Below, in pieces: positions 5,420 through 38,411 of a stretch of 42,297 bases of DNA. The stretch covers positions 1 to 42,297 of IMG/VR virus record IMGVR_UViG_3300032212_000039, one strand, 5' to 3'. Every line of letters begins with the position of its first letter. The first letter of the stretch is position 1. This DNA comes from a virus (lineage: Duplodnaviria > Caudoviricetes). The notes under the pieces are model-generated. The model had not been told where the DNA came from and ran no database searches. It saw nothing but the letters and a program-made list of their open reading frames with translations. A program made the translations under genes and the position numbers.

Positions 5420-5827
5420 ATGAATAATACAATCAAATGGATCCTGGTCGGGGTCTTAGTATTCGAATGTTTTTTCGGCTTCGAAAATGCACACCAGATA
5501 ATTAAGTCGGAGATCTGGCCAGCGGAATCGAAAAGCTTACTTCCTGTTGATCATCCCTTAAACACGTCCTATCCGATCGACCGATCAAACATGGACCAAC
5601 AAATCACCGCATCATCGTACAACGTATCCGGAGAGTTGCACACGCGTATCGAGTTTCCGCCACGACTTTACCTGGATACCTTGAAGATTCCAAAAATCAA
5701 AGTTGTAGTATTCGAAAAACCAAACGGGGATTTGGTTGTCGTAGACATGTACAACGGCGGATCTAAACTAGAGATAACGGCGGATCTCAAAGAGGATTTA
5801 AAATTCGTACCTTTACCTAAGAAATGA
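5420..5827 (+). CDS. Exported or membrane-anchored hypothetical protein
   Basis: N-terminal hydrophobic segment; CCTATCAAAT leader. Confidence 0.65.
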   Translation: MNNTIKWILVGVLVFECFFGFENAHQIIKSEIWPAESKSLLPVDHPLNTSYPIDRSNMDQQITASSYNVSGELHTRIEFPPRLYLDTLKIPKIKVVVFEKPNGDLVVVDMYNGGSKLEITADLKEDLKFVPLPKK

Positions 5828-5867
5828 GTTAGTATTTTATTTGTTTGTTGCTCAAAAGGAGTCCTTT

Positions 5868-5898
5868 AAGCCATGCTGGAAACGGTGTGGCTTTTTTT
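5868..5898 (+). terminator. Rho-independent terminator
   Basis: AAGCCATGCTG-GAAA-CGGTGTGGCTT followed by a T run. Confidence 0.85.
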
Positions 5899-5954
5899 AT
5901 GCCCTCAATTGTTTTAAATTGCAATATGTTTTTAAACCTATCAAAATCAAGATT

Positions 5955-6569
5955 ATGAAGCCGATTAAATTTAAAGGGCACAACGCCGTACTAGGGAAAG
6001 GACAACCTGAATACGAAGAATTACCAGCGTTTATTAATCACGCCAGCCCAATGGGCGAGATCTCCCAATGTTGGGAAATAACCGACGACGACCTTATCAC
6101 AATCGCAAAAACTAGAAAGATTTGGGTCACTCAATTTACATTCGGAGAACGGCTGCAGCCCATTCGAGTCGAGGCGGATTCTCCCATTCCAGAGCCACAA
6201 CCAGGAGCCACAACAGACCCACGGATCATCGGATACAAACGGGATGAGGACGCGATAATGTGTTTATCTAAACAGGCTTTTATGTTCGCCATTCGCTACA
6301 TAGGCCCAAACCTAACCGGATTCATAAGTGAATTAATGGACGGATGTGAAAAGAACACTATCAAGGTAATAGACTTGTCGACATTCGCTCAGTTCTCCAG
6401 GATAAAACAGGATTTTAAAGAGGGGGACACGGTGCACGAAATAAAGCAGCGGCTAAGAAAGAATACCCCACTAAACCGAAAACGTCCACCGTTATGTTTA
6501 ACATTTGACGGACAATCGACGGGAAATGATATCGCAGCGCTACGGGAATGGCTGACAGGATCCTTTTAA
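5955..6569 (+). CDS. Two-domain phage hypothetical protein
   Basis: N-terminal MKPIKF..N.V....QPEY..LP...CW...LQP phage domain; start moved to ATG 5955. Confidence 0.7.
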   Translation: MKPIKFKGHNAVLGKGQPEYEELPAFINHASPMGEISQCWEITDDDLITIAKTRKIWVTQFTFGERLQPIRVEADSPIPEPQPGATTDPRIIGYKRDEDAIMCLSKQAFMFAIRYIGPNLTGFISELMDGCEKNTIKVIDLSTFAQFSRIKQDFKEGDTVHEIKQRLRKNTPLNRKRPPLCLTFDGQSTGNDIAALREWLTGSF

Positions 6570-6593
6570 TCACCTTTTAAATACCTATCAATA

Positions 6594-6851
6594 ATGAGCT
6601 TAATTTCTAAGGATGGCGAAAAGGAAAAAGCCGTTGAAATAACAGAGGATACAAAATGGGTAAGTGTGTATATATCTGCATCATTTACCGGCGATTACTA
6701 CCACGCTTCACGGAATACATCTAGCGACATATATATCGGAGACGTCGAAGGGGTTGATAAAAAGAAGATTGAAATTTGGAAGCGAGTCCAAGAAATAGCA
6801 AATATTCACTTTGATATAGGATATGTCGTGCATAAGAAAACCATAGAATAA
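6594..6851 (+). CDS. Hypothetical protein
   Basis: 85-aa ORF with CCTATCAA leader. Confidence 0.65.
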   Translation: MSLISKDGEKEKAVEITEDTKWVSVYISASFTGDYYHASRNTSSDIYIGDVEGVDKKKIEIWKRVQEIANIHFDIGYVVHKKTIE

Positions 6852-6873
6852 CACAAAACTAAAGTAGTCGATA

Positions 6874-7560
6874 ATGGGAAAGCGACGAACTAAGTATAAT
6901 AAAATAGAATTCGCAGGGGTCCAGCATCGGATCCCCGCAATCTATCCAGGCGCAAAATTAAGCGACGATGAAAAGCGGAAAATCGGATTCCTGGTCTGTG
7001 AGATCTACGAAACGGATCTTTACACACTGGAGGAAACCGTTAAATTTGTAGGATTAGGAGTCCCAACATTTTACCGGTGGATCGATTACCTGGAAGATCT
7101 CAGAGATTCTTTTAGGAATGCTCAGAGGTTAAAGTATCGCAACTATAAGCAGCGACTAACACAAAGAGCGCTAACCGCCGCTGAGGAGCTGACCAGGACC
7201 GGAACATACATAAAGCGAACAATCGAGTATGAACAGGTAGTAATGAACGAGGAACAGCTAAAACAGCTCCAGAAAGGGAATAAGGACGGGTTAAAATTGT
7301 ATGCTGTGAAAATCAAGGAAACCACAGAACGGTACAAACCCAACGCTTATGCAACGATGGCCATCCTCCATAATATGAAAAGCGATACATTCGAGCGGAA
7401 TCCGCAACCAGTGGTAGAGGACATTTCGATCGATGAGATCCCGAAACTATCCTGGATCCAGGAAGGAAACGAGGTCGAACAATCGGAATACGAGGACGCC
7501 GAGCAAATCGATGAACTATCGGAAATCGACAGCGACGACGATATCGAAGAATATAAATAA
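6874..7560 (+). CDS. terS: Terminase small subunit
   Basis: HTH (VGLGVPTFYRW), acidic tail, directly upstream of TerL. Confidence 0.75.
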   Translation: MGKRRTKYNKIEFAGVQHRIPAIYPGAKLSDDEKRKIGFLVCEIYETDLYTLEETVKFVGLGVPTFYRWIDYLEDLRDSFRNAQRLKYRNYKQRLTQRALTAAEELTRTGTYIKRTIEYEQVVMNEEQLKQLQKGNKDGLKLYAVKIKETTERYKPNAYATMAILHNMKSDTFERNPQPVVEDISIDEIPKLSWIQEGNEVEQSEYEDAEQIDELSEIDSDDDIEEYK

Positions 7561-7565
7561 GCGAT

Positions 7566-8885
7566 ATGGTAGTCGACAGAAGAAAAATCAAGCGACCAGC
7601 TCCGATCCGTACCTCGATCAAGTTTAACCCGCTTTACACCTCAGATAAGCGATACTTACTGCTCACCGGCGGACGGGGATCTCTCAAATCTACGACCGTA
7701 CTCGACTATTTGGCCCGCCTTACTTACGAGGCGAATATCGGTGTAATGTTATCCCGATACACAATGGAGTCGGCCGAGGTGTCAATTATTCCAGAGTTCA
7801 AAAAAACGCTAAGTCGGTTAGGTGTCCTTTCTCATTTTCGGATAACCAAAAAGGAGGCCATCAACAAAAAGACGGGATCCTTTATCCGGTTTGCCGGTCT
7901 TAAATCATCCTCCAAGGCGGAAACCGGTAGGCTAAAATCTATCCAGGGTATCACTCATTGGGTAATTGAGGAAGGCGAAGATTTTACCGACGAAAAGACA
8001 TTTAACGACATCGATAGATCTATCCGGTCAACAGTCAAGCCCAACCAGGTGATTATTATAATGAATCCAACGACTAAAGAGCATTGGATTTATAAGCGAT
8101 TTATCGAGGAAAGTTTCCGCACTGTCAAAATGTACGGTTTCGATATTCAGATATCAACACATCCAGATTGTGAGCATATCCATGTAACTTATCATACAGC
8201 GCGAAAACTTGGGTACCTGGACGCTGGATGGTTACGGGGTGTCGATAATTCACTGGCGAAGCTTAAAAAGGCGCTAAAACAAAACAGGGATCCATCTAAG
8301 CGAAAGGAAATAATCCATACCTCAGAATATTACTTAACATACATCGGGGGATGGTTGCTGTTCTCCGAGAATGCAATATTTAAAAACTGGAGCGTAGGAG
8401 AATTCGACGAATCGCTTCCAACTGCATATGGCATTGATTACGGATTTAAGGATCCTTTGTCAATGGTCAAAATAGCAGTTGATCAGAAGAACATGAAACT
8501 GTATGTACACCAAGAAATTTACGCCCCATATATCAAGGACGTACCAGAGGCCATGCACGAACGCGGTATACCTATGAAGGCTATGATTGTGGCGGATACT
8601 AACGAACCACGTACCACGATCAAGATCTTCGAAGCTGGATGGGAAGGAATATCAAAAGCGCACAAATATTCCGGATCCGTTGTGGCGGAGATCCGAGAAA
8701 TGCAACAATTTGAGATTATTATCACGCCTACGTCGAAGGATGTTATCAAATGTTTCTCGAATTACACCTGGAAGGATACGCAACGCGCAAGCTCTCACAG
8801 AGAGGTACCAGGCCACGATTATTCCCACGGACCGGATTCGGTCAGGTATCCATTTAGTAAGCTGGTATTGCTTGACGCTGCTTAA
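7566..8885 (+). CDS. terL: Terminase large subunit (PBSX/SPP1-like)
   Basis: Walker A GGRGSLKS, Walker B WVIEE, MNP motif, nuclease GIDYG..DP and H..D..RY. Confidence 0.95.
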   Translation: MVVDRRKIKRPAPIRTSIKFNPLYTSDKRYLLLTGGRGSLKSTTVLDYLARLTYEANIGVMLSRYTMESAEVSIIPEFKKTLSRLGVLSHFRITKKEAINKKTGSFIRFAGLKSSSKAETGRLKSIQGITHWVIEEGEDFTDEKTFNDIDRSIRSTVKPNQVIIIMNPTTKEHWIYKRFIEESFRTVKMYGFDIQISTHPDCEHIHVTYHTARKLGYLDAGWLRGVDNSLAKLKKALKQNRDPSKRKEIIHTSEYYLTYIGGWLLFSENAIFKNWSVGEFDESLPTAYGIDYGFKDPLSMVKIAVDQKNMKLYVHQEIYAPYIKDVPEAMHERGIPMKAMIVADTNEPRTTIKIFEAGWEGISKAHKYSGSVVAEIREMQQFEIIITPTSKDVIKCFSNYTWKDTQRASSHREVPGHDYSHGPDSVRYPFSKLVLLDAA

Positions 8886-8964
8886 AATCGTATATTGCGG
8901 GACCATTTAGAGAAATGGGGTTATACTAGGGTTTTTATGTCTATTAATACTTTAGGTTTTTCAC

Positions 8965-8991
8965 GCGGTCAGCAATGGCCGCTTTTTTTTT
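8965..8991 (+). terminator. Rho-independent terminator
   Basis: GCGGTCA-GCAA-TGGCCGC followed by T9. Confidence 0.85.
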
Positions 8992-9163
8992 GATAGTCTC
9001 CGCTTTTAGCGGTTTAATATATGGGGTTAAAAGTGGGGTCCGGATAGTGCAGGAAAACGGATCCCACGTCCCCCCAAAGAATTAGGACGGTTCAGTTTTT
9101 TAGTGGAAATTTTAAAACGATATATAGCTCGAAGCTCGATGGCCAAACCGTCGGGCTTTTTTT
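8992..9163 (+). ncRNA. Candidate structured small RNA between two terminators
   Basis: Stems 9033-9067 and 9067-9089, a CCGC/GCGG hairpin, ends in a terminator; no ORF in the track. Confidence 0.35.
9132..9163 (+). terminator. Rho-independent terminator
   Basis: AAGCTCGATGG-CCAAA-CCGTCGGGCTT followed by a T run. Confidence 0.8.
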
Positions 9164-9168
9164 ATTTG

Positions 9169-9199
9169 TTGACCTATTGGAAAAATAAAATTATATTTG
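9169..9199 (+). promoter_or_regulatory. Bacteroidota-type promoter for the structural operon
   Basis: TTG at 9169, TATATTTG at 9192-9199. Confidence 0.7.
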
Positions 9200-9265
9200 T
9201 ACTAGATTTTCATATCCCTGGCTAATGAGAACGCCGGTATTATTAACCTTTTAACTGGCAATACC

Positions 9266-9922
9266 ATGACTATAGCCGCCGCATTACAGCAGCTCCTTTT
9301 ATGCTCATGCCCTCAATCTTCAGAAATTCCAGATATCACGGCGATCACTTGTGTCGAGGATCTGGGAGAACTTCGAAAGCTTATTTTTCAAAGAACTTAC
9401 CTTTCCGCTGGAGTCCTTAACAATATCGTTATAGCGACAGACGATCCAGCCCTCCAAGCAACTTGGACAACGCTCCAGGGATTAGCCACTAACGCAAAGG
9501 TTACGGTGTCCCCTGAATTTGGTAATTATCAGCCGTCTGGAGGGGATCAGCGAACGGCCGGTGGTGGTGCGCAAACTCCAGGAGGTATTCCCCTGAATCT
9601 TGGTTTCAATCCTACTATATCGACGGCCGAATTACAGCGAGTCCCACAGGATACCATTCGAGATCTTAAAAATTACTCATGTGAGGTCGGGCTATCTGTT
9701 TGGCTGATTAATGAGCATGGCCAGATTATCGGACTAAAGGACGCCACGGTCGCCGCTAATTTCCGAGGTATTCCCGTTGCTCAATTTGCCGTAGGGGATA
9801 AAGTACCTGGCCATTACGCTGGATACGATTACAATCCAATGATTTGGAGCTTTTATCCTAACTGGTCGGACTATTTGCACGTTGTAACACCTACAGATTT
9901 CAACGCTTTAACTCAACTCTAA
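9266..9922 (+). CDS. Major tail (tube) protein
   Basis: CxCP..IPDI...C.E..G...K..FQR and W.F.PNWSD motifs recalled from B40-8-like major structural proteins; strong leader. Confidence 0.7.
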   Translation: MTIAAALQQLLLCSCPQSSEIPDITAITCVEDLGELRKLIFQRTYLSAGVLNNIVIATDDPALQATWTTLQGLATNAKVTVSPEFGNYQPSGGDQRTAGGGAQTPGGIPLNLGFNPTISTAELQRVPQDTIRDLKNYSCEVGLSVWLINEHGQIIGLKDATVAANFRGIPVAQFAVGDKVPGHYAGYDYNPMIWSFYPNWSDYLHVVTPTDFNALTQL

Positions 9923-9925
9923 GCA

Positions 9926-10171
9926 ATGGATCAATTAGAGGGTCAAAAATGGTTATGGGATGTAACGCTAAAAATTCGAAAATCATTCGAAGCATCCCAC
10001 GCCGATCGAATAATTGAGCGGTTCCCTAGTCGGGGACTCGTTCCTTACAATAATCAGGATGGGCTTGAAACTGGAGGAAATCCGAAAGATACTGACGGGG
10101 GAGATACCGTCGGACAAAATCCAACTGGCAAAAGCCGTAAAGCTTCAAAATCGGGTAAACCTCCATTGTAA
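9926..10171 (+). CDS. Small hypothetical protein overlapping the portal start
   Basis: 81-aa ORF with F...HA.R motif and low-complexity tail. Confidence 0.55.
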   Translation: MDQLEGQKWLWDVTLKIRKSFEASHADRIIERFPSRGLVPYNNQDGLETGGNPKDTDGGDTVGQNPTGKSRKASKSGKPPL

Positions 10172-11828: not shown

Positions 11829-11849
11829 TTCACTATTAATTATTTACCA

Positions 11850-12329
11850 ATGGCAAAGAACAAACTAGCCGGTAAGGTGCTGATTGATTCCAGGACGAAA
11901 AATCCATCTTTAAAGGAATTTCGGCTTTCCGAGGATGAGGTCGCTAAGTACAAACCGGAAAAGGGTACCGAAGACCTGGTGCACCTAGAACTAGAAAAAG
12001 TTGTTTGGGACGATGGCGAGAAAGCATCCTTACCAAACATTACAAAAATTCCGCAAAACGCTTGGTTATTCATGCGGCGGAAATTGATTACCCAGGGGTT
12101 TAATTACATCCGGATCCTACACGCTGGAGCGGATGTCGAAACCCGACTTTTGATGGACAAAGGACTTTATTCGGCTTTAAAAAACGCGACTAAAAAACGC
12201 GTCACTTTCAACGATGAATATGTAGAAGTAATTGATCCAGAGAAAGGAGGTAAAACACTTACCCGTCGAGAAGCGGCGGCAGCGGCTGAAAAAGCAGCCG
12301 AGGAGGCGAAAGCCAACGCGACAGTATAA
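11850..12329 (+). CDS. Hypothetical head-module protein
   Basis: 159-aa ORF between portal and scaffold. Confidence 0.7.
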   Translation: MAKNKLAGKVLIDSRTKNPSLKEFRLSEDEVAKYKPEKGTEDLVHLELEKVVWDDGEKASLPNITKIPQNAWLFMRRKLITQGFNYIRILHAGADVETRLLMDKGLYSALKNATKKRVTFNDEYVEVIDPEKGGKTLTRREAAAAAEKAAEEAKANATV

Positions 12330-12363
12330 ACCTATTTTTTTCCATCAACAAATAATGTGAAAC

Positions 12364-14401: not shown

Positions 14402-14490
14402 ATGACTAGATAGGTTTTTCATTTGTTTGGTATTTGATAGGATTTATCAATCGAGAGGAAAGGGGTTTAAAAGCTCCTTTCCTTCTTCCA
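14402..14490 (+). ncRNA. Capsid 3'-UTR candidate antisense RNA plus terminator-like hairpin (14456-14483)
   Basis: 14431-14445 is the exact reverse complement of 841-855; hairpin GGAAAGGGGTT...AGCTCCTTTCC. Confidence 0.5.
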
Positions 14491-14500
14491 ATTCTAATAT

Positions 14501-24945: not shown

Positions 24946-27591
24946 ATGAATTATAAAGCAAAAACTCATTTTAAAGCCGTTTTTAGCTTCTTAGCGGCAT
25001 TTTTTCTTGTTTTGAATCTGTCAGGACAAGTGATGGTAAAAGGTACTGGTATACGGTATTATCAAGGCTATACACTGGCGACCTATGCAACCGCCACCGC
25101 TCCGGAGACAACCTATGGAACAGAAGTCGCTTTTTTTATCGACTTAAACATCTTATGTAAGTGGGATCGAGTGAATAGCATTTGGGTTCCTACTGATAAT
25201 GTTTTATCACAATCGGGGGTTCCTGTTCATACGCCTAATGTTGGCGATCCTATCAATTATTTAGATAAATCAAGTGGGGATTTATATAAATGGGGTGGCG
25301 CGTCTTGGTCTTTAATTGGATCTGGCGCGGCTAGTGTGGTAGTTAGTCGTATAACAAATGTGAAAGACACGACGATTTTAAGTCCTACAACTGGCGACGA
25401 ATGGGTAAATGTTGCTGGTGATACTAGCGGGGTTTATTCTTCGGATCGGTGGCTTATTAGGTCAGGCGGCGGCGGTGGTAATTGGGACCATATAGCAAGC
25501 CAAGAAATAGACTTAGATACGTTTTGGATAAGTCCGGACGGGACAAGCAAAGGAATTCAATTACCGTCTAGTGGTGGGTACATTTATGAATCATTGGTGA
25601 ACGCTACCTATAGAGAGCAAACACTTTTATCTAGTGTAACTCTAACTAAGGGGATTATTGATGATAGCTTCCTGAGTACGCAAATTAGTTTTATTAAGGA
25701 TGCAACTAACCCAAGGTTGGATTTTGCATTTAATGGTATAAGTAATTGGCGAATATTTAAGGATCACTTAGGGGTAATTCCTCCGACTTCTGACCCCGTA
25801 GATATAACTTTTGGCGATAGTTATTTCTATTTATATCCTATACGTTCAGGAGCCGCAGGTACTGGTGATTTAAGATATAAAGACGGCACAAGCGGAACAG
25901 AAAAAACATTAGTTCCGCGCTCTGAGTTACAAGACTCATCGATAGCGATTAGGGCTGATTTTCCAAGTGGTGGCGGTGGCTCACAGGATTTATCTAGTGT
26001 TTTAACACAAGGGAACGACGCAGGGGCGGCAAAAATAACAAACTTAGCATCTCCAACAGATGCGGGGGACGCTGTAAACCTTGGTTACTTTAACGCTAAT
26101 AGTGGAGCGGCGGCGAACTTTGCGGTAGCTCAATCTGGGGTTGTGCCTTTGCCTTATGATAAATCCACACAAACACATAGCAGTAATTTAGGCGCTGGCC
26201 AAATGTGGGGGGAATATGATATTTATATTAACGATAACACTCGTAAGTTTTACTCTTTGATAATCGATGCTGCGGCCATTGATGACATAATAGTATCTTT
26301 TGTTTACCTGTACGATGCTGATAGCATCCTAGTGTTAGAAAGAGATACCGTTACAACCCAAATAGGGCTTAATACTTTCTATTCTAATTCGTTTGATGAA
26401 GAATTCATTGACTTTTCCCTTTATCCTAATGTACACATAACACTATCTTTGACGACATCGGGATCGGTGAAGTATCGAACGATTAGCCCTAAAACGCCAG
26501 GGTTTTCGACATCAAGCAGAACAAGCGTAACATATACAGCAAATAGAGTGTTAGAGTTTGATTTCTGGCAGGAAACATTTGCCTATAAAAGGAATGCTTC
26601 GGTCTTACCAGACTTATCTAACCTGCCAGAGGTTATCGAATGGGGTGAAGAAATATACATTCCACCAGGAACATATACAGTCAACGACCCTATTGTTATT
26701 TCTGAATCTGGAAAGCGTATTTATGGTGTCCCTGGCCAAACAATTATAGAGTTAGCACCAGGTGTAGACAATATATTTGACATAACCACGGCGGGGGTTA
26801 AAGACTTAGAGATATATGGTTTGACCTTAAGAGGCAACGGTTCAACTATCGATATTAATTCTAGCGCCATACTTGGAAATTTAGACAGTATTTACAATCT
26901 ACGAGGCGCGGGCACTGAGGTTGGTATTAAAATAGGCGGTGTTACTGGACCCGCTTTTGTGGAACGGATAAATATTCACGATTGCGTGTTTGAGGACTTC
27001 ACTTATACGGGCATACAAATAATTGCTACGGGGGAAGAGTGGGCTAACGGCGTAAAAATATCAGATAGCTACGCGTTAAATTGTTATGCTGGTGTAGTCT
27101 TCGAAGGTACCGCAGAGTATTCTGCACTGGAGAACTTTAGCGGGAACGGATGTCTAATTGGTGCGGTAGTGTTTTCGAAGAATCTCCTATTCGACAATTG
27201 CCATTTCAATGGGAATCGGGTTGGTTTTTTTTATGGCTCAGATACGGGCGTAAACCCTGGTCATTCTGGTGTGTCTAACAGTACATTTAATCACAATGCA
27301 ATGTATGCCATAGTTACTGAGAATGTAACCTCTGGATTCACCCTAAGTGGTTCTTTTATCTGGTCCTCTGGCCCTGTATATATATACAATACTTCTGGGT
27401 TTCTAATGTCGAACATAAGTTTTAGCAGCGCTGTGATTAGCTTAGAGGGTGGCGGTAGAAACATGATAAGTGATAGTTTTTTTGCAAACACACCCACTAT
27501 AAACGAAGATCAAAACAGTACAACAACAGACATACAACTAAAAAACAATCATTATATGGACGGGAGTAGCAATACGGCAATAAATAATTAA
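24946..27591 (+). CDS. Tail spike/fibre-like protein with C-terminal beta-helix and an apparent Sec signal peptide
   Basis: IYIPPGTY..G..G.T pectin-lyase-like start near aa 570; fibre motif QDLSSVL..GN..ITNLA.PT..GDAVN; N-terminus ...FFLVLNLSG|Q. Confidence 0.75.
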   Translation: MNYKAKTHFKAVFSFLAAFFLVLNLSGQVMVKGTGIRYYQGYTLATYATATAPETTYGTEVAFFIDLNILCKWDRVNSIWVPTDNVLSQSGVPVHTPNVGDPINYLDKSSGDLYKWGGASWSLIGSGAASVVVSRITNVKDTTILSPTTGDEWVNVAGDTSGVYSSDRWLIRSGGGGGNWDHIASQEIDLDTFWISPDGTSKGIQLPSSGGYIYESLVNATYREQTLLSSVTLTKGIIDDSFLSTQISFIKDATNPRLDFAFNGISNWRIFKDHLGVIPPTSDPVDITFGDSYFYLYPIRSGAAGTGDLRYKDGTSGTEKTLVPRSELQDSSIAIRADFPSGGGGSQDLSSVLTQGNDAGAAKITNLASPTDAGDAVNLGYFNANSGAAANFAVAQSGVVPLPYDKSTQTHSSNLGAGQMWGEYDIYINDNTRKFYSLIIDAAAIDDIIVSFVYLYDADSILVLERDTVTTQIGLNTFYSNSFDEEFIDFSLYPNVHITLSLTTSGSVKYRTISPKTPGFSTSSRTSVTYTANRVLEFDFWQETFAYKRNASVLPDLSNLPEVIEWGEEIYIPPGTYTVNDPIVISESGKRIYGVPGQTIIELAPGVDNIFDITTAGVKDLEIYGLTLRGNGSTIDINSSAILGNLDSIYNLRGAGTEVGIKIGGVTGPAFVERINIHDCVFEDFTYTGIQIIATGEEWANGVKISDSYALNCYAGVVFEGTAEYSALENFSGNGCLIGAVVFSKNLLFDNCHFNGNRVGFFYGSDTGVNPGHSGVSNSTFNHNAMYAIVTENVTSGFTLSGSFIWSSGPVYIYNTSGFLMSNISFSSAVISLEGGGRNMISDSFFANTPTINEDQNSTTTDIQLKNNHYMDGSSNTAINN

Positions 27592-30044: not shown

Positions 30045-30545
30045 ATGGAAGAACTTAAATTTGTAATCGATGAGCAAGCGCTAAGGAATTTAAGCATCGT
30101 CATGGCAAACGATGAACCGGAGGAAGTGACGGATTCAATAGCCGACGCCGCTCAAGTTATCATCATTGTAGAAAGACCATTGCAGGACGGGTTCCAATAT
30201 ACCGACCTTTTCCAATGGGTGGCCGTCCAGCCCTATATTCAAGAACTAGTGAACGACGCCCAAACGTTTTGGACACAGTTCAATGAGGTTGTAGCAAAGA
30301 ATCCTAAATTAGCGATTGCTTCTGTTGTTGAGGCGAGGCGGAGGGTTGAGGGCTCCGGTTTAACAAATGGGGCAAAGCTGTTTTTCAACTTCTTATTCCT
30401 AGCTGCTAATGGATTTGATTTTGGATCAATGGTATTCATTCAAAGCCAGGCACAAATTACCATGTGGCAAAACTTTTTCAAAGGGGTGGATATTATGCCA
30501 AACGCCATCCCAACGGCGATCGGACCTGGAAACCTCGCCGGTTAA
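30045..30545 (+). CDS. Hypothetical protein
   Basis: 166-aa ORF; last gene before the terminator. Confidence 0.75.
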   Translation: MEELKFVIDEQALRNLSIVMANDEPEEVTDSIADAAQVIIIVERPLQDGFQYTDLFQWVAVQPYIQELVNDAQTFWTQFNEVVAKNPKLAIASVVEARRRVEGSGLTNGAKLFFNFLFLAANGFDFGSMVFIQSQAQITMWQNFFKGVDIMPNAIPTAIGPGNLAG

Positions 30546-30601
30546 ATCGCATAGTGTTGAAGGCCCATTGACACGGGCAGTATGTTTCATAGTTTTAGAC
30601 G

Positions 30602-30636
30602 GAACCAATCTCGAAAGGGGTTGGTTCTTTTTTTTT
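30602..30636 (+). terminator. Rho-independent terminator ending the late operon
   Basis: GAACCAATCTC-GAAA-GGGGTTGGTTC followed by T9. Confidence 0.9.
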
Positions 30637-30656
30637 GCAGTAGTTTTTTGCAGCAA
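30632..30656. repeat. 25-bp inverted repeat, left arm (partner 33814-33838)
   Basis: TTTTTGCAGTAGTTTTTTGCAGCAA; 24/25 match to the reverse complement of the partner. Confidence 0.85.
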
Positions 30657-30659
30657 AAA

Positions 30660-30690
30660 TTGCATTTGATTTTTTTATTATATAAGTTTG
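30660..30690 (+). promoter_or_regulatory. Bacteroidota-type promoter
   Basis: TTGC at 30660, TAAGTTTG at 30683-30690. Confidence 0.65.
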
Positions 30691-30720
30691 TAGTCATTCA
30701 ACGAATTTAAAAAACAACAA

Positions 30721-31743
30721 ATGAGTATCACAAAGACGGCACTCGCCACCGAATTGGGTATCACCCGATTTGTCCTGGATCGCAAAATCAAGGATCTAAC
30801 CTCACAAAAAGCGCTCAAGTTACGAGCGCCACAACCACGCAAACCAGTATCGGATAAACTAGCGGACGCGATCAGGGAATCGCTATCGGAGGATACATCC
30901 GTCGAAGATCTGGAGGAATTGGTCATCGTACCAAGTACCAGAGATACGGAGGACTACGAGATCCAGGAGGCTGTTTATCGCCAGCTGGATTTTTCAGAAG
31001 ATGAGGAACTAAAAGAAGCCGATCCAGAACTGGAAGAAAACAAAGGATCCCTAATTAATGCCAGGATGACCGAATTTAGGAAAGAAGCCCTGGCGGAATT
31101 CGCAGGATCTACAGATCGCGTTTCCGACCATTACGAAACCATAGAGGATTTAAATCCGCCGACGGATGAGGAAGTCGAGGAAGCAATCGAGGACTGGCGA
31201 AAGGCATTCGACAATCCGATCGTTACGCCAAAGCCGGATCCACCGATCGAAGATGAGAAAGAAAACTGGCTGGTAGAATGGAAGGAAAGACAAGCGAAAG
31301 CCATTCGAAGTCTCCCAGGTAATGAGGAACCAGAGAAAGTCGACCAGGAGAAGCCAGGGCAAGCCATACACCCGATGTTTAAACTACAGCTGGACGTTAT
31401 AGCGGCGATTGTCATCATTCTTACCGATGCAATATGTTGCTGGTGGATTGCTTACAATTCATTTGACGGCCAGGCGGCGATCCATGCCAGTGCTTTGTTC
31501 TTTCTTGGTGGTATGGCGTCGGGCTATGCTGCTGTTAGATTCATTGCTACTGAGAAAAGCACACTATCGGATGACTGGTCAAACGGACTAATGGTATACC
31601 AAATCGCTTTGCATGTTTGCGCCCTGGAGGTATTACAATCGTATTCCTTCCTAGTCGGCAAAATTGTAATTGCAATTGGTTTCGCTATGTCGATGAAAGT
31701 ACTCGCAAAATCATTCCGTAACGTTCAAATTAAATCCCTATGA
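30721..31743 (+). CDS. N-terminal HTH, acidic linker and four-TM membrane protein
   Basis: TKTALATELGITRFVLDRKI HTH-like segment; four hydrophobic helices at the C-terminus. Confidence 0.7.
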   Translation: MSITKTALATELGITRFVLDRKIKDLTSQKALKLRAPQPRKPVSDKLADAIRESLSEDTSVEDLEELVIVPSTRDTEDYEIQEAVYRQLDFSEDEELKEADPELEENKGSLINARMTEFRKEALAEFAGSTDRVSDHYETIEDLNPPTDEEVEEAIEDWRKAFDNPIVTPKPDPPIEDEKENWLVEWKERQAKAIRSLPGNEEPEKVDQEKPGQAIHPMFKLQLDVIAAIVIILTDAICCWWIAYNSFDGQAAIHASALFFLGGMASGYAAVRFIATEKSTLSDDWSNGLMVYQIALHVCALEVLQSYSFLVGKIVIAIGFAMSMKVLAKSFRNVQIKSL

Positions 31744-32237
31744 TAGCCCTACGAATACTAGTACCAATTCTACAGGCTTTTGGCATCCTTGAAAGGGACA
31801 ACATTAGCCATCCATTTAAACCACAAGAGGAGCCACAAACAGAGCCACAACGCGACTTACAAGAGGCACCAGAAGAAATGCAGAATATTATTAAAACCTC
31901 ATGGGGTACAAGCCGCTCGAATGTGGCAGTACATGTCGAGCTTGATACCGAACGTAATGTGTTCGAATTCGACCGCTCTAAAAGCTTTAAAAGAGCACTT
32001 GCAATGTCGGCCGATTTTGGGTGGGCTGATGTGGCAGTTTTGAAGGACTCGAAAGTCAGTGAAACATCATACAAGAAAGTTCGACCGTTTGTGGTATCTG
32101 GAGAAAGCAACAAAGAGATCGCAGAGCGTTTCGGCTGGAAGGTAGCAACGGCGGAAAAGTATTGCGCAAAGGTTCGCAAAGCAATTCGATTGTTTCAAGA
32201 AAACGACGGTCAAAACCCCTCCCCTCTTGGTAAATAG
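31740..32237 (+). CDS. C-terminal HTH (LuxR/sigma-4-like) protein
   Basis: GESNKEIAERFGWKVATAEKY. Confidence 0.65.
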   Translation: MIALRILVPILQAFGILERDNISHPFKPQEEPQTEPQRDLQEAPEEMQNIIKTSWGTSRSNVAVHVELDTERNVFEFDRSKSFKRALAMSADFGWADVAVLKDSKVSETSYKKVRPFVVSGESNKEIAERFGWKVATAEKYCAKVRKAIRLFQENDGQNPSPLGK

Positions 32238-32315
32238 GGGTAGGGGGCGGATTTTACCTGGATTTTACCGGATTTCTTGATCCGGATTTTTTAAAACTAT
32301 AAGTATCAACACATT

Positions 32316-33095
32316 ATGAAAAATAAAAATCGGGTTTCGGACTTGGATAAAAGTTGGATTTCTACCGGATTTGAAAAACCGGATTCGATAGGGGGGGGAA
32401 GTAGCGACATTCCTTTTACCCCTATCGAAGTGCTAACAAACGTCGACACATTGCAAGCGAATGAGACTCGCAATGTAAGTACCGTTGTGATTATCAAACC
32501 GACTCGCAAAGGGACTCGCAATGTAAGCGCCGTTGTGGCTTACAAAGGGATTACTAATGCGACTCGCAAAGGTACTGCGATTGTGACTCGCAAAGTACGC
32601 CACATTACAAGCCACATAAACGGGGACAATGTGCGGTATTTTGCGCTCACATTTGCAAGTGGTTTTGTAAGTGATTTTGCAGCACCTTTGGGGCGGATCT
32701 TTGTAAGTGTTTTACATGCCACATTCAAAGGACTTACAAACCCATTAACATGGAAGATTGTTGGCGGCACATTGGCAGTCGTTTTCGGTGGGTATGGATT
32801 GTACCTATTCGGAGTTGTTTTAATCGCAATTCTTACTAATGAATACCTATGGAAAGTATTAGGTTTTGCAATAGTGGGTTGTGTTACATTCTTTGTCTTT
32901 TTAATTGGATCAGCGGACGTTTTCCGGAGCCATAGAGGTAGAGGTCGGAACAGACCAGATCCGCCGCCTGAATCGTCCACATGGCACCGGTCAGACAATT
33001 TCGGTCGGACCGGCCAGTCAAACGTCACGATTGTAAACGTAGGCGGCGAGGGGAATTCCGTTAATACCAATATCTCAAACAACCAAAATCATTAA
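32316..33095 (+). CDS. Membrane protein with tetrapeptide-repeat N-terminus
   Basis: TRK/TRN repeats; two to three TM helices. Confidence 0.65.
   Translation: MKNKNRVSDLDKSWISTGFEKPDSIGGGSSDIPFTPIEVLTNVDTLQANETRNVSTVVIIKPTRKGTRNVSAVVAYKGITNATRKGTAIVTRKVRHITSHINGDNVRYFALTFASGFVSDFAAPLGRIFVSVLHATFKGLTNPLTWKIVGGTLAVVFGGYGLYLFGVVLIAILTNEYLWKVLGFAIVGCVTFFVFLIGSADVFRSHRGRGRNRPDPPPESSTWHRSDNFGRTGQSNVTIVNVGGEGNSVNTNISNNQNH
32465..32739. repeat. 12-bp-periodic RCTYRCAW repeat array in both orientations
   Basis: GACTCGCAA at 32465, 32501, 32513, 32561, 32585; inverted TTGYAAGTG at 32653, 32665, 32701. Confidence 0.75.
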
Positions 33096-33098
33096 CTC

Positions 33099-33626
33099 AT
33101 GACTAAACAGCATTTAATCATTTCCAGTATAACCGGATTCTTTTGGTCGCTGGCCATCTTCCAGGATCCGTTTTTTATCCTTTTATTTACAGCCTCTTTT
33201 GTCCTGGTGATTTATTCCATCATAATGACTATCATAAACCACCGTCGAGATATGGAGCTTAAAAAGACAATCGAGTCGATCTATGTGGTTGCTCTAAAAA
33301 TGGACGGAACGAAGATCGATATACCTATCCAATTCAATCACCTGGTCCGCCACGTAAAAGCAAAGTATATCGATAAAGAAGCAAAGCGGATCCGGAGAGA
33401 ATTAGCGCGCGTAGGGAATCCGTTTTTTGATCCGGACCTGGAGCCAGAAAAACAAATCTATGTTGTACCTATCTATCCTAATGATGGCGTACACGTGAAC
33501 CAAACGGATATAGAATACAATCTTATGGCATTAGATAATATTAAAGATTTTCGCGCTAAATGGCATAAGCTTTTAAAGGAAACGGATCTGGAGTGGTACA
33601 AGAAATACCACCACCACCAGGTGTAA
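33099..33626 (+). CDS. Membrane-anchored hypothetical protein
   Basis: N-terminal TM hairpin. Confidence 0.7.
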   Translation: MTKQHLIISSITGFFWSLAIFQDPFFILLFTASFVLVIYSIIMTIINHRRDMELKKTIESIYVVALKMDGTKIDIPIQFNHLVRHVKAKYIDKEAKRIRRELARVGNPFFDPDLEPEKQIYVVPIYPNDGVHVNQTDIEYNLMALDNIKDFRAKWHKLLKETDLEWYKKYHHHQV

Positions 33627-33671
33627 GATCTTACGGTGATACTCACCGTTTGTTTTTCGTTGAATCATTTC

Positions 33672-33704
33672 GAGGGCTTGCTAATTGCACGCCCTCTTTT
33701 TTTT
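33672..33704 (+). terminator. Rho-independent terminator (contains the -33 of the next promoter)
   Basis: GAGGGC...GCCCTC followed by T8. Confidence 0.8.
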
Positions 33705-33715
33705 CCCTATCTTTG
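33685..33715 (+). promoter_or_regulatory. Promoter for a candidate sRNA
   Basis: TTGC at 33685, TATCTTTG at 33708-33715. Confidence 0.65.
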
Positions 33716-33720
33716 AAGTG

Positions 33721-33786
33721 TTATTGTATTATGTGTTTTATTCAACTTTCCAGTATAGAAAGGGATCCTTAGTGGTCCCTTTTTTT
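33721..33786 (+). ncRNA. Candidate ~66-nt stand-alone sRNA
   Basis: Own promoter and terminator (AAAGGGATC...GGTCCCTTTTTTT); complementary to leader 33876-33896. Confidence 0.6.
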
Positions 33787-33813
33787 GTGTCTAGATCTGA
33801 GGCTAAAATAAAA

Positions 33814-33838
33814 TTGCTGCAAAAAACTGCTGCAAAAA
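33814..33838. repeat. 25-bp inverted repeat, right arm
   Basis: TTGCTGCAAAAAACTGCTGCAAAAA. Confidence 0.85.
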
Positions 33839-33870
33839 TTTGCATCAAAAATAAATTTGCCTTATCTTTG
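33839..33870 (+). promoter_or_regulatory. Bacteroidota-type early promoter
   Basis: TTTG at 33839, TATCTTTG at 33863-33870. Confidence 0.75.
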
Positions 33871-33898
33871 AGTCAGAATAAAAAACACACATAATAAG

Positions 33899-34147
33899 AT
33901 GACAAAGACAAGCAAACTTTCCGTATTAGCCTCAATCCGTGAGCGCATCGAGTTAATCCAAAGTGAAGTAATCGAATTTTCAAAGACCGTCGAGGTTGAC
34001 TATGACGATTGCGAAGCATATAGTGAAAGCGAATTCTTTATCGCTGACCAGCTGGAGGAATTGGAAGCGCTCCAAAAAGCGTTGTCAGATTGCGAAACGA
34101 CAGCCGCCAAATTACTTTCTAAGGAAACCACTTTCCAAACATCCTAA
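33899..34147 (+). CDS. Acidic coiled-coil hypothetical protein
   Basis: 82-aa ORF, first gene after the promoter. Confidence 0.7.
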   Translation: MTKTSKLSVLASIRERIELIQSEVIEFSKTVEVDYDDCEAYSESEFFIADQLEELEALQKALSDCETTAAKLLSKETTFQTS

Positions 34148-34149
34148 TT

Positions 34150-34317
34150 ATGTATACCAAGATTCTACAAGTAGCCGCCGCCGCTATGGCGTCACAGATA
34201 CACCAGGACGATCGCATCGAGGTAATTGCCTCATGTGCGATCGTCGCCGACGGATTCGGATTCGTCACACTTGCACAGCGACTAGATACTCTTATCAACC
34301 ACATGTACAACGGATAG
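34150..34317 (+). CDS. 55-aa hypothetical protein (not in the ORF track)
   Basis: MYTKILQVAAAAMASQIHQ...HMYNG; ATG 2 nt after the upstream stop. Confidence 0.6.
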   Translation: MYTKILQVAAAAMASQIHQDDRIEVIASCAIVADGFGFVTLAQRLDTLINHMYNG

Positions 34318-34392
34318 TAATACATCGAAATGAGTTGGTCGGACATTAGCACCGGCAAAAAGTTCTTTGACATACTGGCAGCGCTATAGAGC

Positions 34393-34453
34393 GCACTTAC
34401 ACGCTTCTGACCGTTCGGGGCTGGAAATGGGTTCGATACCCTCCAGGAGTGCA
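34393..34453 (+). other. tRNA-fragment-like structured element with a T-loop
   Basis: GGG-TTCGATA-CCC inside CTGGA/TCCAG and GCACT/AGTGC stems. Confidence 0.5.
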
Positions 34454-34476
34454 TTGTTAAATTAAACTAATTCCAA

Positions 34477-34842
34477 ATGACTAAACAGCAAATAAGACTT
34501 TTACGGATGATCCATACACAATTGTCGTGCATGGAAGTTACCCTTAGTGAGTTAGTGGATCCTATGATCCTGAAAGGTGATACAATTGGCCTGGTGGACG
34601 AAAAACTCCCACTATACATCGAAGGGATCCGTCAAGCCAGGGAGCATTTAAAAGAAGCCTGGCAAAGTATGGAGCCGATTATCTCCGCAATCACTAAGGA
34701 GATTGAACCGGATAAAGAACATGAGCCGATCGAATCAATCCTAAAGGAATCAGCGATTATTTTACATAAGATGAGATTTAAAGGCGGCGATATTACGCCT
34801 CCGCCAATTCCGGATATCGATATCACCTGGATTGAAGAATAA
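34477..34842 (+). CDS. Hypothetical protein
   Basis: 121-aa ORF. Confidence 0.7.
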   Translation: MTKQQIRLLRMIHTQLSCMEVTLSELVDPMILKGDTIGLVDEKLPLYIEGIRQAREHLKEAWQSMEPIISAITKEIEPDKEHEPIESILKESAIILHKMRFKGGDITPPPIPDIDITWIEE

Positions 34843-34857
34843 TAATGTCCCTTTTTA

Positions 34858-34892
34858 GCCGGTTGGTACCTGGAGTGCTGGCCGGCGCTTTT
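34858..34892 (+). terminator. Hairpin / weak terminator
   Basis: GCCGGTTGGTAC...GTGCTGGCCGGC followed by GCTTTT. Confidence 0.5.
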
Positions 34893-34923
34893 AAATTATT
34901 TCAAACCATTTCAATTAATACAA

Positions 34924-35154
34924 ATGAGTATCAAGGAACAAGCTAGTCAAATCACATATGGCCAATGTCTGGAGGAAATGTCGGAAAAACGAGGAACGCG
35001 TCAAACGATGTTTATTCCGGATTCGGTTAACACCTTAATCGAGGAATTCCAGGAGCGGTTCAAGGCTGAAAACGGCCGACACATTTCAAAGGAAAAGGTA
35101 TTCTTTAAATTATCCGTAGCGGGATTTAAGGAGCTACTTTCCGACAAATCCTAA
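34924..35154 (+). CDS. Putative ribbon-helix-helix DNA-binding protein
   Basis: RQTMFIPDSV..LI....ISKE.V pattern. Confidence 0.5.
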   Translation: MSIKEQASQITYGQCLEEMSEKRGTRQTMFIPDSVNTLIEEFQERFKAENGRHISKEKVFFKLSVAGFKELLSDKS

Positions 35155-35180
35155 TTTTCAAATCCTATCAAATCAATATT

Positions 35181-36083
35181 ATGAGTGAGGAAAAACAAAG
35201 CCATACAAGCGAAGATTTATTAAAGCAAATCTTAGAGCTTCAAAACAAGTTAAAAGCTACTGAATTGAAGGCTATTGGACTGTATAACGAAAACCAGCAG
35301 TACAAAATGAACATTGCACCGGATGCAATGCGTATGAAAGCGGAATTGAATATCGAGCTGGAGGTAGCACAGACCTTTATCACATCTGGAGCTTTTCCCA
35401 ATGTGACAAAAGAGCAAGCCTACGTAATTATGAAAGCCGGTCAGGAAATGGGCCTGGATAAAGTCGAGTCTTTGCAATCCCTATACATAACACCAAAGGG
35501 GAAAATTGAGATCTTCGGAAAAGCCCTAACTGGATTCATCAAACGGGGCGGATATGAAATCGAATACCAGGAGGAAATCGAGTCCAGCGTAGTAGTAAGG
35601 GTTTTTCATCCAACGAATGGATATGACTATCGGGAATTGGTGACAGACCAGGACCAGGTTATCAAAGCGAAGTACCGGAAAGATGGGAGCAAACGAACGT
35701 CGGCGATCGATTTCGCTAAGAAAAATAAAATGCGATTCCACGGATTGAGAATGCACTTGAATTTTAGGTTAGCCCACTTAATAAAGGCGACATCTGATTT
35801 ATTTTCGAATGATTTCCTGGAGTGGAAAGAGCAACAACAATTGGATTCAAAAATCCAACTAGGTTTGCCGGTCGAATCACAACCTGGACTAGATCTGGAA
35901 GCAATCGAGGCCAATAAGAATATCGAGCGGATTTCTAACCGCTTAAAAACGGCCACTGGATTGCAATTAGTTAACCTTCGCGAAACTTGCGAAAAACTCA
36001 ATTTGATGGATCTTTACGAGGATCGAGTCGACGAGCTGGAAGCACTGGAGGCGGAACAAAGACAGAATTCCAATGAAGGGTAA
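35181..36083 (+). CDS. RecT/Bet-like single-strand annealing protein
   Basis: IMKAGQEMGL...SLQSLYI...GKI motif; adjacent to an exonuclease gene. Confidence 0.65.
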   Translation: MSEEKQSHTSEDLLKQILELQNKLKATELKAIGLYNENQQYKMNIAPDAMRMKAELNIELEVAQTFITSGAFPNVTKEQAYVIMKAGQEMGLDKVESLQSLYITPKGKIEIFGKALTGFIKRGGYEIEYQEEIESSVVVRVFHPTNGYDYRELVTDQDQVIKAKYRKDGSKRTSAIDFAKKNKMRFHGLRMHLNFRLAHLIKATSDLFSNDFLEWKEQQQLDSKIQLGLPVESQPGLDLEAIEANKNIERISNRLKTATGLQLVNLRETCEKLNLMDLYEDRVDELEALEAEQRQNSNEG

Positions 36084-36990
36084 AGATTTAAGGATTCACG
36101 CGTCCGCCAGTTGCAAACTAATGGCCGGTGACAACCAGCTAACGGAAAAGCAATTCGAGGAAATGAAAAGCCTCGAATCCAGGCTGCAACTATCGATAAT
36201 CGGACAAGCTAAACCGCTAACTGAAAAAATGGCGGACAAGCTGACCGACTTACAAGAACGCGCCGCCGCTCCGCTGGAGCTAGGCAAAAGCGCTAAGACG
36301 ATGGTAACGGACATCTGGAGATATAAGGAAAAGGGATTCCGGATCCAAGTTTTCGACGATAAGCTTACAAAGGGGACTGTCACCGAATTGGATTGCATTG
36401 ATCTAATGGATGAGGTTTACCCAGAGGATCAGATCAGAGAAAAGAACACAGTCCGCAAGACTAACGACTGGTTAACCGGCGAATGTGACGTCGAACTGGC
36501 AAAGATCAAGGCGAAACGGATTGAGGACATGAAATCGACCTGGAGCTTGCCACAATTCATGGACAAGGACACACCAAGCGAAGAATATTATTCCCAGGGG
36601 CAATCCTATATGGATCTCTATGGGTACGACGAATTCTGGCTTTGTTATTGCCTGGTCAATACTCCAGAGTTTATTATCCGCCGCCTTCAATGGAAACTGT
36701 TTTATCAATTTCGAATGAATCAGCTCGATAAATTTGATGAGTTGCTTTTGAAAAATACCAGATTCCAAGAAGCTTGCGAACAGATCGCAAAAAATCACAC
36801 TTACGATCATTTGGAACCGGCGGAAAGGATCCGAATTTTCAAGTTTGAGCGCAACGACGACTACATCAAAGAGCTTCACTATCGCGCTGACTGGTGCAAA
36901 GATTACTACGATAGCATATCAATGACAAGGCCACCGTCGATCGTCCCTCCAGAGTCGTTTAAGCGGACGTATATGTATAAACAGCAATGA
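36073..36990 (+). CDS. YqaJ/lambda-exonuclease-like PD-(D/E)XK nuclease
   Basis: KG...E, LTGECD, D.K..WS, YY.Q.Q.YM.L motifs. Confidence 0.8.
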   Translation: MKGKDLRIHASASCKLMAGDNQLTEKQFEEMKSLESRLQLSIIGQAKPLTEKMADKLTDLQERAAAPLELGKSAKTMVTDIWRYKEKGFRIQVFDDKLTKGTVTELDCIDLMDEVYPEDQIREKNTVRKTNDWLTGECDVELAKIKAKRIEDMKSTWSLPQFMDKDTPSEEYYSQGQSYMDLYGYDEFWLCYCLVNTPEFIIRRLQWKLFYQFRMNQLDKFDELLLKNTRFQEACEQIAKNHTYDHLEPAERIRIFKFERNDDYIKELHYRADWCKDYYDSISMTRPPSIVPPESFKRTYMYKQQ

Positions 36991-37017
36991 TTTTTAACCA
37001 CTAACAGTTTATAACCC

Positions 37018-37386
37018 ATGAGAGTAGCAACAATTCTTACTTTTTTATTCCTTTCATTCCAGGCTATCGGCCAGGATACTTTAAATGATTTGAGTTTCGA
37101 ACAGACTAACGATTTTATCAAGGTCGAAATGAAAACACCATACCAATGGGGAAACCTGGAAGTGTGGGACCATGACGGACACTTAATTTTCACGGCCACA
37201 TTGAATCCCAAAGGTCGACAGCCGCTCATGTACTTATTACCAAAAGCAGCGCTGGCCAAAACCGGAGCTTTAGAGGTTTCGGTATATGTGACCAGGTTAC
37301 ATAAAGGGATGGTATTTAGAGACAATATCAATCAAATAGACGTAACCGGTCGAAACCTGGTAAGACTTCGACCTCCAGGAAAATAA
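37018..37386 (+). CDS. Exported small beta-sandwich protein (T9SS-CTD-like)
   Basis: Signal peptide AIG|Q; NDFIKVE...LEVWD..GHLI pattern. Confidence 0.55.
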   Translation: MRVATILTFLFLSFQAIGQDTLNDLSFEQTNDFIKVEMKTPYQWGNLEVWDHDGHLIFTATLNPKGRQPLMYLLPKAALAKTGALEVSVYVTRLHKGMVFRDNINQIDVTGRNLVRLRPPGK

Positions 37387-37409
37387 TTTCATTCACAAAA
37401 TCAAATACT

Positions 37410-37712
37410 ATGCCTCTGCAAATGAAAGATCCAGGCGTAACAGAAAAAGCCCACTTTTTAACCTTGTATTCCAACTATCAAAAAGGATACTGGATCGAGG
37501 TAAATTTCGAGCAATTAGCACAACGCGCAGGATCGCGGGAAATGCTGTTATCCTGGTTTATTTGGAACGGGATTAAGTTTATATACCTTCCATTCAATTT
37601 CCCAACTAAGGACGGAGAGCTGGTCAATGCTGGAGACTTCGCGACGGTCGGGATGTCTCGATCGCGGTTGGTTGTCGGTAATGGGATAAAGCTAATTCCT
37701 GAGAACAAATAG
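37410..37712 (+). CDS. Hypothetical protein
   Basis: 100-aa ORF with A-rich leader. Confidence 0.65.
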   Translation: MPLQMKDPGVTEKAHFLTLYSNYQKGYWIEVNFEQLAQRAGSREMLLSWFIWNGIKFIYLPFNFPTKDGELVNAGDFATVGMSRSRLVVGNGIKLIPENK

Positions 37713-37743
37713 TATTTTTTATACTAAAAAAAATGAATACGAA

Positions 37744-37884
37744 ATGGACTGGATAGATATTTCTAAACTCTCAATTGAGAACGGAAACGAATTTTATTTT
37801 TTAGTGGATGGAAAAACAAAGCGAGGTACTTATTCGCAGTTTCCGAACGCCACGAAGTTCGCAACATTGGATGTTATATTTTAA
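37744..37884 (+). CDS. 46-aa hypothetical protein (not in the ORF track)
   Basis: MDWIDISKLSIENGNEFYFLVDGK... Confidence 0.45.
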   Translation: MDWIDISKLSIENGNEFYFLVDGKTKRGTYSQFPNATKFATLDVIF

Positions 37885-37939
37885 TGTCGTAGAACACCAC
37901 AATAAACGACCATTTTTCAACCTATCTAAAACCAGTAAA

Positions 37940-38215
37940 ATGATTATCGACGAAAACTATTTTATAACATTTGACACTCACAACGTCACGTTGAATTATC
38001 AGAAAGTGAGTGACCAACTCAACAAAAAAGGCGAGAATGTAGTCACCAAAAGATCGAGCCATCACGGATCGGTTAGACAGGCTTTAATCGCCTTTTTGAA
38101 TTCAGCCGTCAAAGATGAACGGGATTGTACAGATGTAATCGACCTGTTGGCCCGTATGGATACCATAGAGGATAAGATTAACAAATTCATAGCCCAACAT
38201 TCAACGGAAAAATAA
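37940..38215 (+). CDS. Hypothetical protein
   Basis: Start moved to ATG 37940 behind the AACCTATCTAAAA leader. Confidence 0.65.
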   Translation: MIIDENYFITFDTHNVTLNYQKVSDQLNKKGENVVTKRSSHHGSVRQALIAFLNSAVKDERDCTDVIDLLARMDTIEDKINKFIAQHSTEK

Positions 38216-38261
38216 AAGTCGCTTAAAAGGGCTTAAAAATAGTGTTGGATTTAGTTTGGTC

Positions 38262-38298
38262 GGGGGATTCTTAAAGGCAGGATCCCCCACTTTTTTTT
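38262..38298 (+). terminator. Rho-independent terminator
   Basis: GGGGGATTCT...AGGATCCCCC followed by T8. Confidence 0.8.
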
Positions 38299-38376
38299 AT
38301 TCCTATGAAACATTAAGAAATAAGCAACGTAGAATAAAGCGTTGTTGTAGATTTCCATACTATTCGATTTGCTTTC

Positions 38377-38411
38377 GAGCTGTGCACTCAATTTGCACAG
38401 CTCTTTTTTTT
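38377..38411 (+). terminator. Rho-independent terminator (second of a tandem pair)
   Basis: GAGCTGTGCA...TGCACAGCTC followed by T8. Confidence 0.85.

Follow-up and report, generated by a model that had tools for sequence, protein, structure and literature searches.

Do the U/G-rich stretches that precede terminators in a Bacteroidota phage act as antisense RNAs against the phage's own translation starts? The window analyzed here, all 42,297 nt of IMG/VR record IMGVR_UViG_3300032212_000039, is a complete 42-kb siphovirus genome with a 127-nt terminal repeat. Its genes lie essentially all on the + strand, and the recognizable ones encode terminase, portal, capsid, tail, RecT/RecE-like, replication, and DnaB functions. 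The host is probably a member of Bacteroidota, a placement at phylum rather than species level, because capsid relatives occur in phages and assemblies of that phylum—i.e. the capsid is ~30–40% identical to those of phages of Croceibacter, Bacteroides, Flavobacterium, and Elizabethkingia, with closer relatives in Flavobacteriaceae and Saprospiraceae assemblies. The window leaders are A/C-rich, matching expectation for a phylum whose leaders are described as lacking Shine-Dalgarno sequences (PMC6847099). An earlier sequence-only reading had proposed a genome-wide network of antisense RNAs directed at these leaders. We find this to be overstated, and the genome likely holds a few anti-start RNAs resembling FopS of Bacteroides rather than a demonstrated network. 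Specifically, we consider it an evenly balanced call that three U/G-rich, terminator-ended stretches, here named A, B, and C, act as antisense RNAs on start regions of the same genome, with the rest lacking an identifiable target. Antisense pairing at A-rich leaders would block ribosome entry and thereby damp translation.

The U/G-rich composition is the firmest result. Across the 12 pre-terminator segments of the window, which were set by position (segment T1734, under 15 nt, was left out), the T/G skew, (T + G − A − C)/n, averages +0.21 and exceeds 0.2 in 7. The corresponding chromosomal segments, from ~0.8 Mb of two Bacteroidota chromosomes, average −0.13, with 0 of 50 above 0.2 (Mann–Whitney P = 5e-6), and 60 segments from 14 related phages average +0.08, with 17 above 0.2. 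Because the skew lies above that of chromosomal and related-phage segments, these tails are not the default 3′ untranslated region (UTR) of the phylum, and the U/G-rich stretches that had been noticed by eye are both real and atypical. A/C-rich leaders, however, pair easily with T/G-rich DNA.

The segments were compared with 54–55 start regions, each spanning −40 to +15, and several scoring schemes were tried for pairing. The ten pairs of the sequence-only reading are all present as described, mismatches and bulges included, and its caution that 9–11-nt matches can arise by chance is well founded, as shuffled segments yield mean longest matches of 8.3–9.6 nt. Only one of the 12 segments, 14412–14456 (in C), has a longest perfect match to any of 54 start regions that beats 1000 dinucleotide shuffles (15 nt, P = 0.002). 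Gapped pairing adds two standouts, 33627–33671 (in A) on gene 30721 and 33716–33756 (in B) on gene 33899, while the remaining segments stay at chance. With gaps and G–U pairs allowed, the summed best score is 387 vs 354 ± 11 for shuffled segments (P = 0.004) and 365 ± 10 for foreign start regions (P = 0.012). The latter (n = 1034) are crude open reading frame calls filtered for A-richness, with G006 and G007 not known to be the host. A local rule, which pairs each element with the first gene of its own unit and with the next gene (24 tests) and was set after pairs A and B were known, gives P = 0.001 for A and 0.0019 for B (Bonferroni 0.023 and 0.046), the next best being 0.15.

Element A, at the 3′ end of an operon, pairs with the start of that operon's first gene, 30721, in three ordered blocks (8, 8, and 10 bp) that run across the ATG. 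The match originally quoted, 33656–33665 with 30696–30705, is therefore genuine but incomplete, as pairing continues over the ATG (33636–33645 with 30722–30731). A scores 39.5 on gene 30721 vs 29.5 for its next own target, a value that none of the 1034 foreign start regions attains (single-target shuffles, P = 0.0006 and 0.001). Four close strains, ~90–99% alike, were compared over the A/B region, and differences near the targets were read among 40 of 939 difference rows. None of A's 26 paired bases varies among these strains (3.1 expected, P = 0.033). An insertion in two strains at 30705 falls in an unpaired bulge of A's target, and the first coding changes of strain X2 in gene 30721 (30732 and 30735) lie just past the paired block. 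The terminator stem of A is altered on both sides among strains (33675/33693 and 33678/33690), so that, judged from these sequences, the terminator is under structural constraint. Pairing would nucleate via 16 unpaired bases, after which A's own hairpin would open and the AUG of gene 30721 be covered. A would thus feed back on the operon that carries it, folding back should transcription pass the weak internal terminator at 32268 and acting in trans if not. The 340-aa product of gene 30721 has no family match, and its helix-turn-helix-like N-terminus is a weak lead only.

Element B is predicted to yield a ~66-nt RNA with its 5′ part unpaired ahead of the terminator hairpin (centroid fold). The next gene, 33899, is the first of the early/recombination operon, and B pairs with its leader and ATG through 8 + 9 bp flanking a bulge and a further 7 bp that include two G–U. 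One of the 1034 foreign start regions reaches the score of 38.0 (30.0 for the next own target), and P is 0.0013 and 0.0017 in single-target shuffles. The targeted leader, 33876–33898, has 0 of 23 positions variable in the four strains (P = 0.049). The string TATCTTTG at 33708 fits TAnnTTTG, which we take to be the Bacteroidota promoter consensus; it is invariant in the four strains and recurs in the relative G006:C75, while TAnnTTTG shows no genome-wide enrichment (37 sites, 34.9 expected). Transcribed from a near-copy of the early promoter, B would impose a threshold on expression of the first early gene.

A 25-nt inverted repeat (96%) with GCAAAAA-type units, at 30632–30656 and 33814–33856, lies upstream of the promoter-like sites at 30683 and 33863 and looks operator-like.

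Element C follows the major capsid gene and holds the only two reverse copies in the genome, 27 nt apart, of a leader box, CCTATC[A/T]A (its strict 8-mer was chosen from the top leader words, and the degenerate position was added afterwards). The box occurs upstream of 7 of 55 window genes, none recognized as structural, and in 2 of 1034 foreign start regions, and sits 10–36 nt ahead of ATGs rather than at promoters. One of these genes, 35181, has a weak RecT-like match. Start regions sharing at least 8 nt with C number 19 of 55, where 11 are expected (P = 0.008). Abundant late alongside capsid mRNA, C would damp the seven box-bearing nonstructural genes together. Separately, the gene at 37808–38215 likely starts at ATG 37940, behind a leader box: strain X3 lacks 37720–37927, and the PHROG match starts only at residue 44.

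The cultured phage P2559S offers a possible independent analogue of the design of C. A box, ACCGAGAG, precedes 6 of its starts, and one reverse copy lies in a unit, running from promoter to terminator, that immediately precedes a box gene. This unit matches 10 of 59 start regions (P = 2e-5), and its box is G/C-rich and unrelated to that of the window. The multi-target test gave P < 0.01 for 9 of 60 elements in other phages but is confounded by AT content, and only the G/C-rich P2559S box was counted. In G006:C75, one element beats all 717 foreign start regions; the matching region there has two candidate RNAs with no own target above foreign ones, although the contig may not include the first gene of that operon. 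If the scheme is true, a phage can use a private leader box to address sets of mRNAs that lack Shine-Dalgarno sequences, an idea directly testable in the cultured pair of P2559S and Croceibacter atlanticus. By eye, 14 nt of the post-capsid UTR of G001 (~27030–27050) match, in reverse, the loop region of a noncoding hairpin unit at 5509–5600 of the same genome, a possible RNA–RNA sponge.

Several results weigh against antisense action on the phage's own starts. The excess in summed score is no longer significant without A and B (P = 0.06 against shuffled and 0.22 against foreign) or without A, B, and C (0.14 and 0.30), no target exceeds controls for 9 of 12 elements, and in a whole-genome scan a start region is the top match in only 3 of 10 elements (null 1.45 ± 0.9). 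Co-folding energies, compared with 330 foreign start regions, are unexceptional once corrected for the best of 54. Among 60 elements of the 14 related phages, own start regions are not generally preferred over foreign ones (8 of 60 with P < 0.1, Fisher P = 0.15), in an automated test that is blunt: it did not pick up A and C, evidently lost gene 33899, included no G001 segment, and has a P floor of ~0.06. As G001, G002, and G003 have leader boxes without an exact noncoding reverse copy, the box/anti-box design is not universal. For A, invariance is not covariation, and the probability of an invariant run of 32 nt arising anywhere within the 272-nt region is P = 0.41. Its top three matches in a lenient genome-wide scan are coding sites with slightly higher scores, and its anti-AUG block lies partly within a predicted hairpin (net −14.4 kcal/mol by co-folding). 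Element B is the least secure of the three because its seed varies (5 of 24 positions, 2.8 expected) while its target does not; by eye, the change in X5 adds a pair and those in X2 and X6 shift the register. Co-folding also places gene 33899 only fourth for B. By alignment score, C matches foreign start regions equally well (5 of 1034 reach its value), and its anti-boxes are partly buried in predicted hairpins. Finally, the covariation between RNA and leader that had been proposed as a check was not seen: no intermolecular compensatory change links A or B to its target among the four close strains. The comparison is confined to these strains because no deeper relatives of the switch region were found—i.e. 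gene 30721 has only two homologues (80–87%), scans of genome and viral contigs recovered none, and those of metagenomes returned the window's own record alone. A one-to-one network across the whole genome is unsupported, while the anti-start architecture holds for about three elements.

The phylum provides a tested precedent for such an RNA. FopS, one of the FopS/GibS RNAs of Bacteroides thetaiotaomicron, represses by binding near the start codon (PMC11697453). Like FopS/GibS as described there, the phage elements combine a single-stranded 5′ stretch with a Rho-independent terminator (~65–70 nt), comprise intergenic and 3′-UTR-derived members with several copies per genome, and, in a phylum whose leaders lack Shine-Dalgarno sequences, are predicted to pair close to the start codon. 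This layout is found in B (66 nt), while A and C carry extra hairpins. FopS RNAs are chromosomal paralogues with one shared seed that repress susC mRNAs and bind RbpB (PMC11697453), whereas each phage element has its own sequence and the supported targets, as predicted from sequence, are phage genes. No seed is shared among the elements: their sequences differ, and the 20 largest repeat families listed do not join the seeds. FopS is stated to have been deposited in Rfam (PMC11697453); the Rfam search of the window gave no family match at E ≤ 1, although the presence of a FopS model in the searched copy was not checked.

The elements also recall the C4 antisense RNA of P1/P7, in which short blocks face the ribosome-binding region of a phage mRNA and seeds lie partly in loops (PMC5320573, PMC12197685). 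C4 is, moreover, processed by RNase P and represses an antirepressor mRNA. Unlike C4, the phage elements show neither a three-stem-loop fold nor an Rfam match. Lacking a shared seed, the C4 fold, and any Rfam match, they are members of neither FopS/GibS nor C4. OOP and P22 sar are cis-encoded phage antisense RNAs. Like these, the elements would be small phage RNAs (here predicted) that damp a neighboring regulatory or early gene; unlike them, they lie on the target's own strand, at separate loci, with imperfect complementarity. The cis-encoded lambda aQ is likewise made from the opposite strand and is perfectly complementary to its target (PMC12197685). Term counts in the available text of that phage small-RNA review return neither Bacteroides nor Flavobacterium, and our literature search found no title on start-blocking RNAs of Bacteroidota phages.

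Could the elements instead be aimed mainly at the host, as FopS-like RNAs against common starts (A-rich leader plus AUG AAA), e.g. of exported or receptor proteins, with the phage matches a by-product? We regard this as rather unlikely, and it is not mutually exclusive with action on phage starts. C reads as a generic AUG-AAA start in reverse, one absent from all window genes, and the start ATGAAAAA occurs in 50 of 602 chromosomal genes vs 1 of 52 window genes. Among related phages, 7 of 60 pre-terminator segments contain TTTCAT (2.6 ± 1.4 shuffled, P = 0.007), and TTTTCAT occurs in the post-capsid UTRs of the window, L019, P2559Y, and G008. Host targets of C are possible because C mirrors the generic start and the post-capsid UTRs of L019, P2559Y, and G008 are similar. 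TTTCAT is present in only 2 of 12 window segments (P = 0.12), however, the 12-mer common to C and G006:C75 is not significant (P = 0.078), and A, B, and the box are specific to the window genome. A pattern scan for C returned 21 matches, none resembling a post-gene element with box-bearing leaders. Of the 50 chromosomal pre-terminator segments, one, on the G006 chromosome, is a clear anti-start tract (an A-rich leader and ATG AAA in reverse) and thereby a FopS-like candidate from a member of Flavobacteriaceae. We hold only tentatively, and as something more doubtful than probable, a wider scheme in which mRNA 3′ ends of Bacteroidota siphoviruses, including that of the capsid gene, would silence both a phage box and host AUG-AAA starts, two local RNAs would tune the early switch, and box and anti-box would be replaced together between phages.

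It is unlikely that the tails act without base pairing, through protein binding, stability, or aid to termination, with the pairings a compositional coincidence of many comparisons. The nine targetless elements, the null sum without A, B, and C, the negative whole-genome and 14-phage tests, and the number of scoring schemes tried all fit this explanation, which leaves unexplained the two anti-box copies in one UTR, the three ordered blocks over the ATG of an operon's first gene, and the P2559S analogue with its unrelated G/C-rich box. Very improbable, finally, is a role of the stretches as leaders for small genes on the minus strand or as inverted regulator sites at the DNA level. Their reverse complements do resemble start regions, minus-strand frames of 19–54 codons begin at the CATs (that at 38358 encodes a 35-aa hydrophobic/basic peptide), and a DNA box can function in either orientation. 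However, no minus-strand TAnnTTTG lies directly upstream of the CATs at 14422, 30552, 30590, and 38358, the terminator U tracts have plus-strand polarity, B contains no CAT, and four of the frames (from 14422, 30552, 30590, and 33668) extend antisense into long genes. The location of the box ahead of ATGs also argues against a DNA site. The 35-codon frame on the minus strand at 38251–38358 has a hydrophobic middle and a basic tail, overlaps two terminators, shows no promoter match, and could encode a small antisense peptide.

The remaining stretches share the anti-leader composition and have no identifiable target (Table 1). Three of the pairs initially quoted fail by co-folding: 38245/34464, 38343/3895, and 8948/6855 rank 7th (gene 34477), 9th (3929), and 8th (6874) of 54. 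Another three, 5844/4503, 38355/5010, and 30550/32292, do rank first of 54 (4526, 5020, and 32316), but 0.3–1.5% of the 330 foreign regions match them, a level common in a best-of-54 draw. The pairing of 38216–38261 with gene 31740 beats 330 of 330 foreign regions by co-folding, but not 5 of 1034 by alignment score. The quoted target 34464–34476 carries two deletions in strain X2, where coverage does not include the partner, and is replaced after 34466 in X4.

Table 1. Positions in the window of the three elements, their predicted targets, and further features.
Feature	Position	Strand	Details
Element A	33627..33704	+	3′ UTR of operon 30721–33626; hairpin 33633–33649; pairing blocks 33636–33645, 33650–33657, 33658–33665; terminator 33672–33696 + U tract
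Predicted target of A	30696..30731	+	Leader, ATG, first codons of gene 30721
Operator-like repeat	30632–30656	+	Upstream of gene 30721; inverted partner 33814–33838
Promoter-like TAAGTTTG	30683–30690	+	Before gene 30721
Element B	33708..33786	+	Promoter-like TATCTTTG 33708–33715; seed 33719–33743; terminator 33757–33786
Predicted target of B	33863..33904	+	Second promoter-like TATCTTTG 33863–33870; leader + ATG of gene 33899
Element C	14402..14487	+	3′ UTR of major capsid gene; reverse box copies 14407–14414 and 14434–14441; CAT 14420–14422; hairpin 14457–14487, weak U tract
Leader box CCTATC[A/T]A, best copy	841..855	+	15/15 match to C
Other box copies	2484, 5410, 5937, 6584, 35164, 37921	+	Before genes 2502, 5420, 5955, 6594, 35181, 37940
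Two CAT sites around hairpin	30546..30636	+	Best own target 32316 (co-folding); single-target shuffle P ~0.04, target chosen afterwards
T/G-rich element + terminator	38216..38297	+	Best own target 31740, not the quoted 34477
Two hairpins + terminator	38322..38411	+	CCAU in predicted loop; best own target 5020
T/G-rich 3′ UTR + terminator	5828..5900	+	Match to 4526 leader at chance level
T/G-rich unit after terminase gene, with terminator	8900..8991	+	No target above chance

Scans of the window for tRNAs and viral scans with single window proteins were empty, and none of its 56 proteins is annotated as an antirepressor. An intergenic element in the early operon, 34362–34455, combines GTTCTTTGACA, which we take to be boxA-like, with a tRNA-like T-loop hairpin and has no Rfam match. 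A near-identical core occurs at L062:2541–2625 (G006:C75), with the T-loop stem altered on both sides, and the core is also present in a 41.5-kb contig of run X2. This candidate antitermination RNA could decide when downstream terminators are used. A scan for it gave 3 matches, none of which aligns. A GCTTAAAA...GCC/GGCTT-type motif recurs in intergenic DNA, at 1815–1835 and 38220–38240 in the window and at 7316, 9356, and 34362 in G006:C75. Lastly, gene 32316 contains three 48-nt tandem repeats (32460–32603), one unit of which is missing in strain X5.

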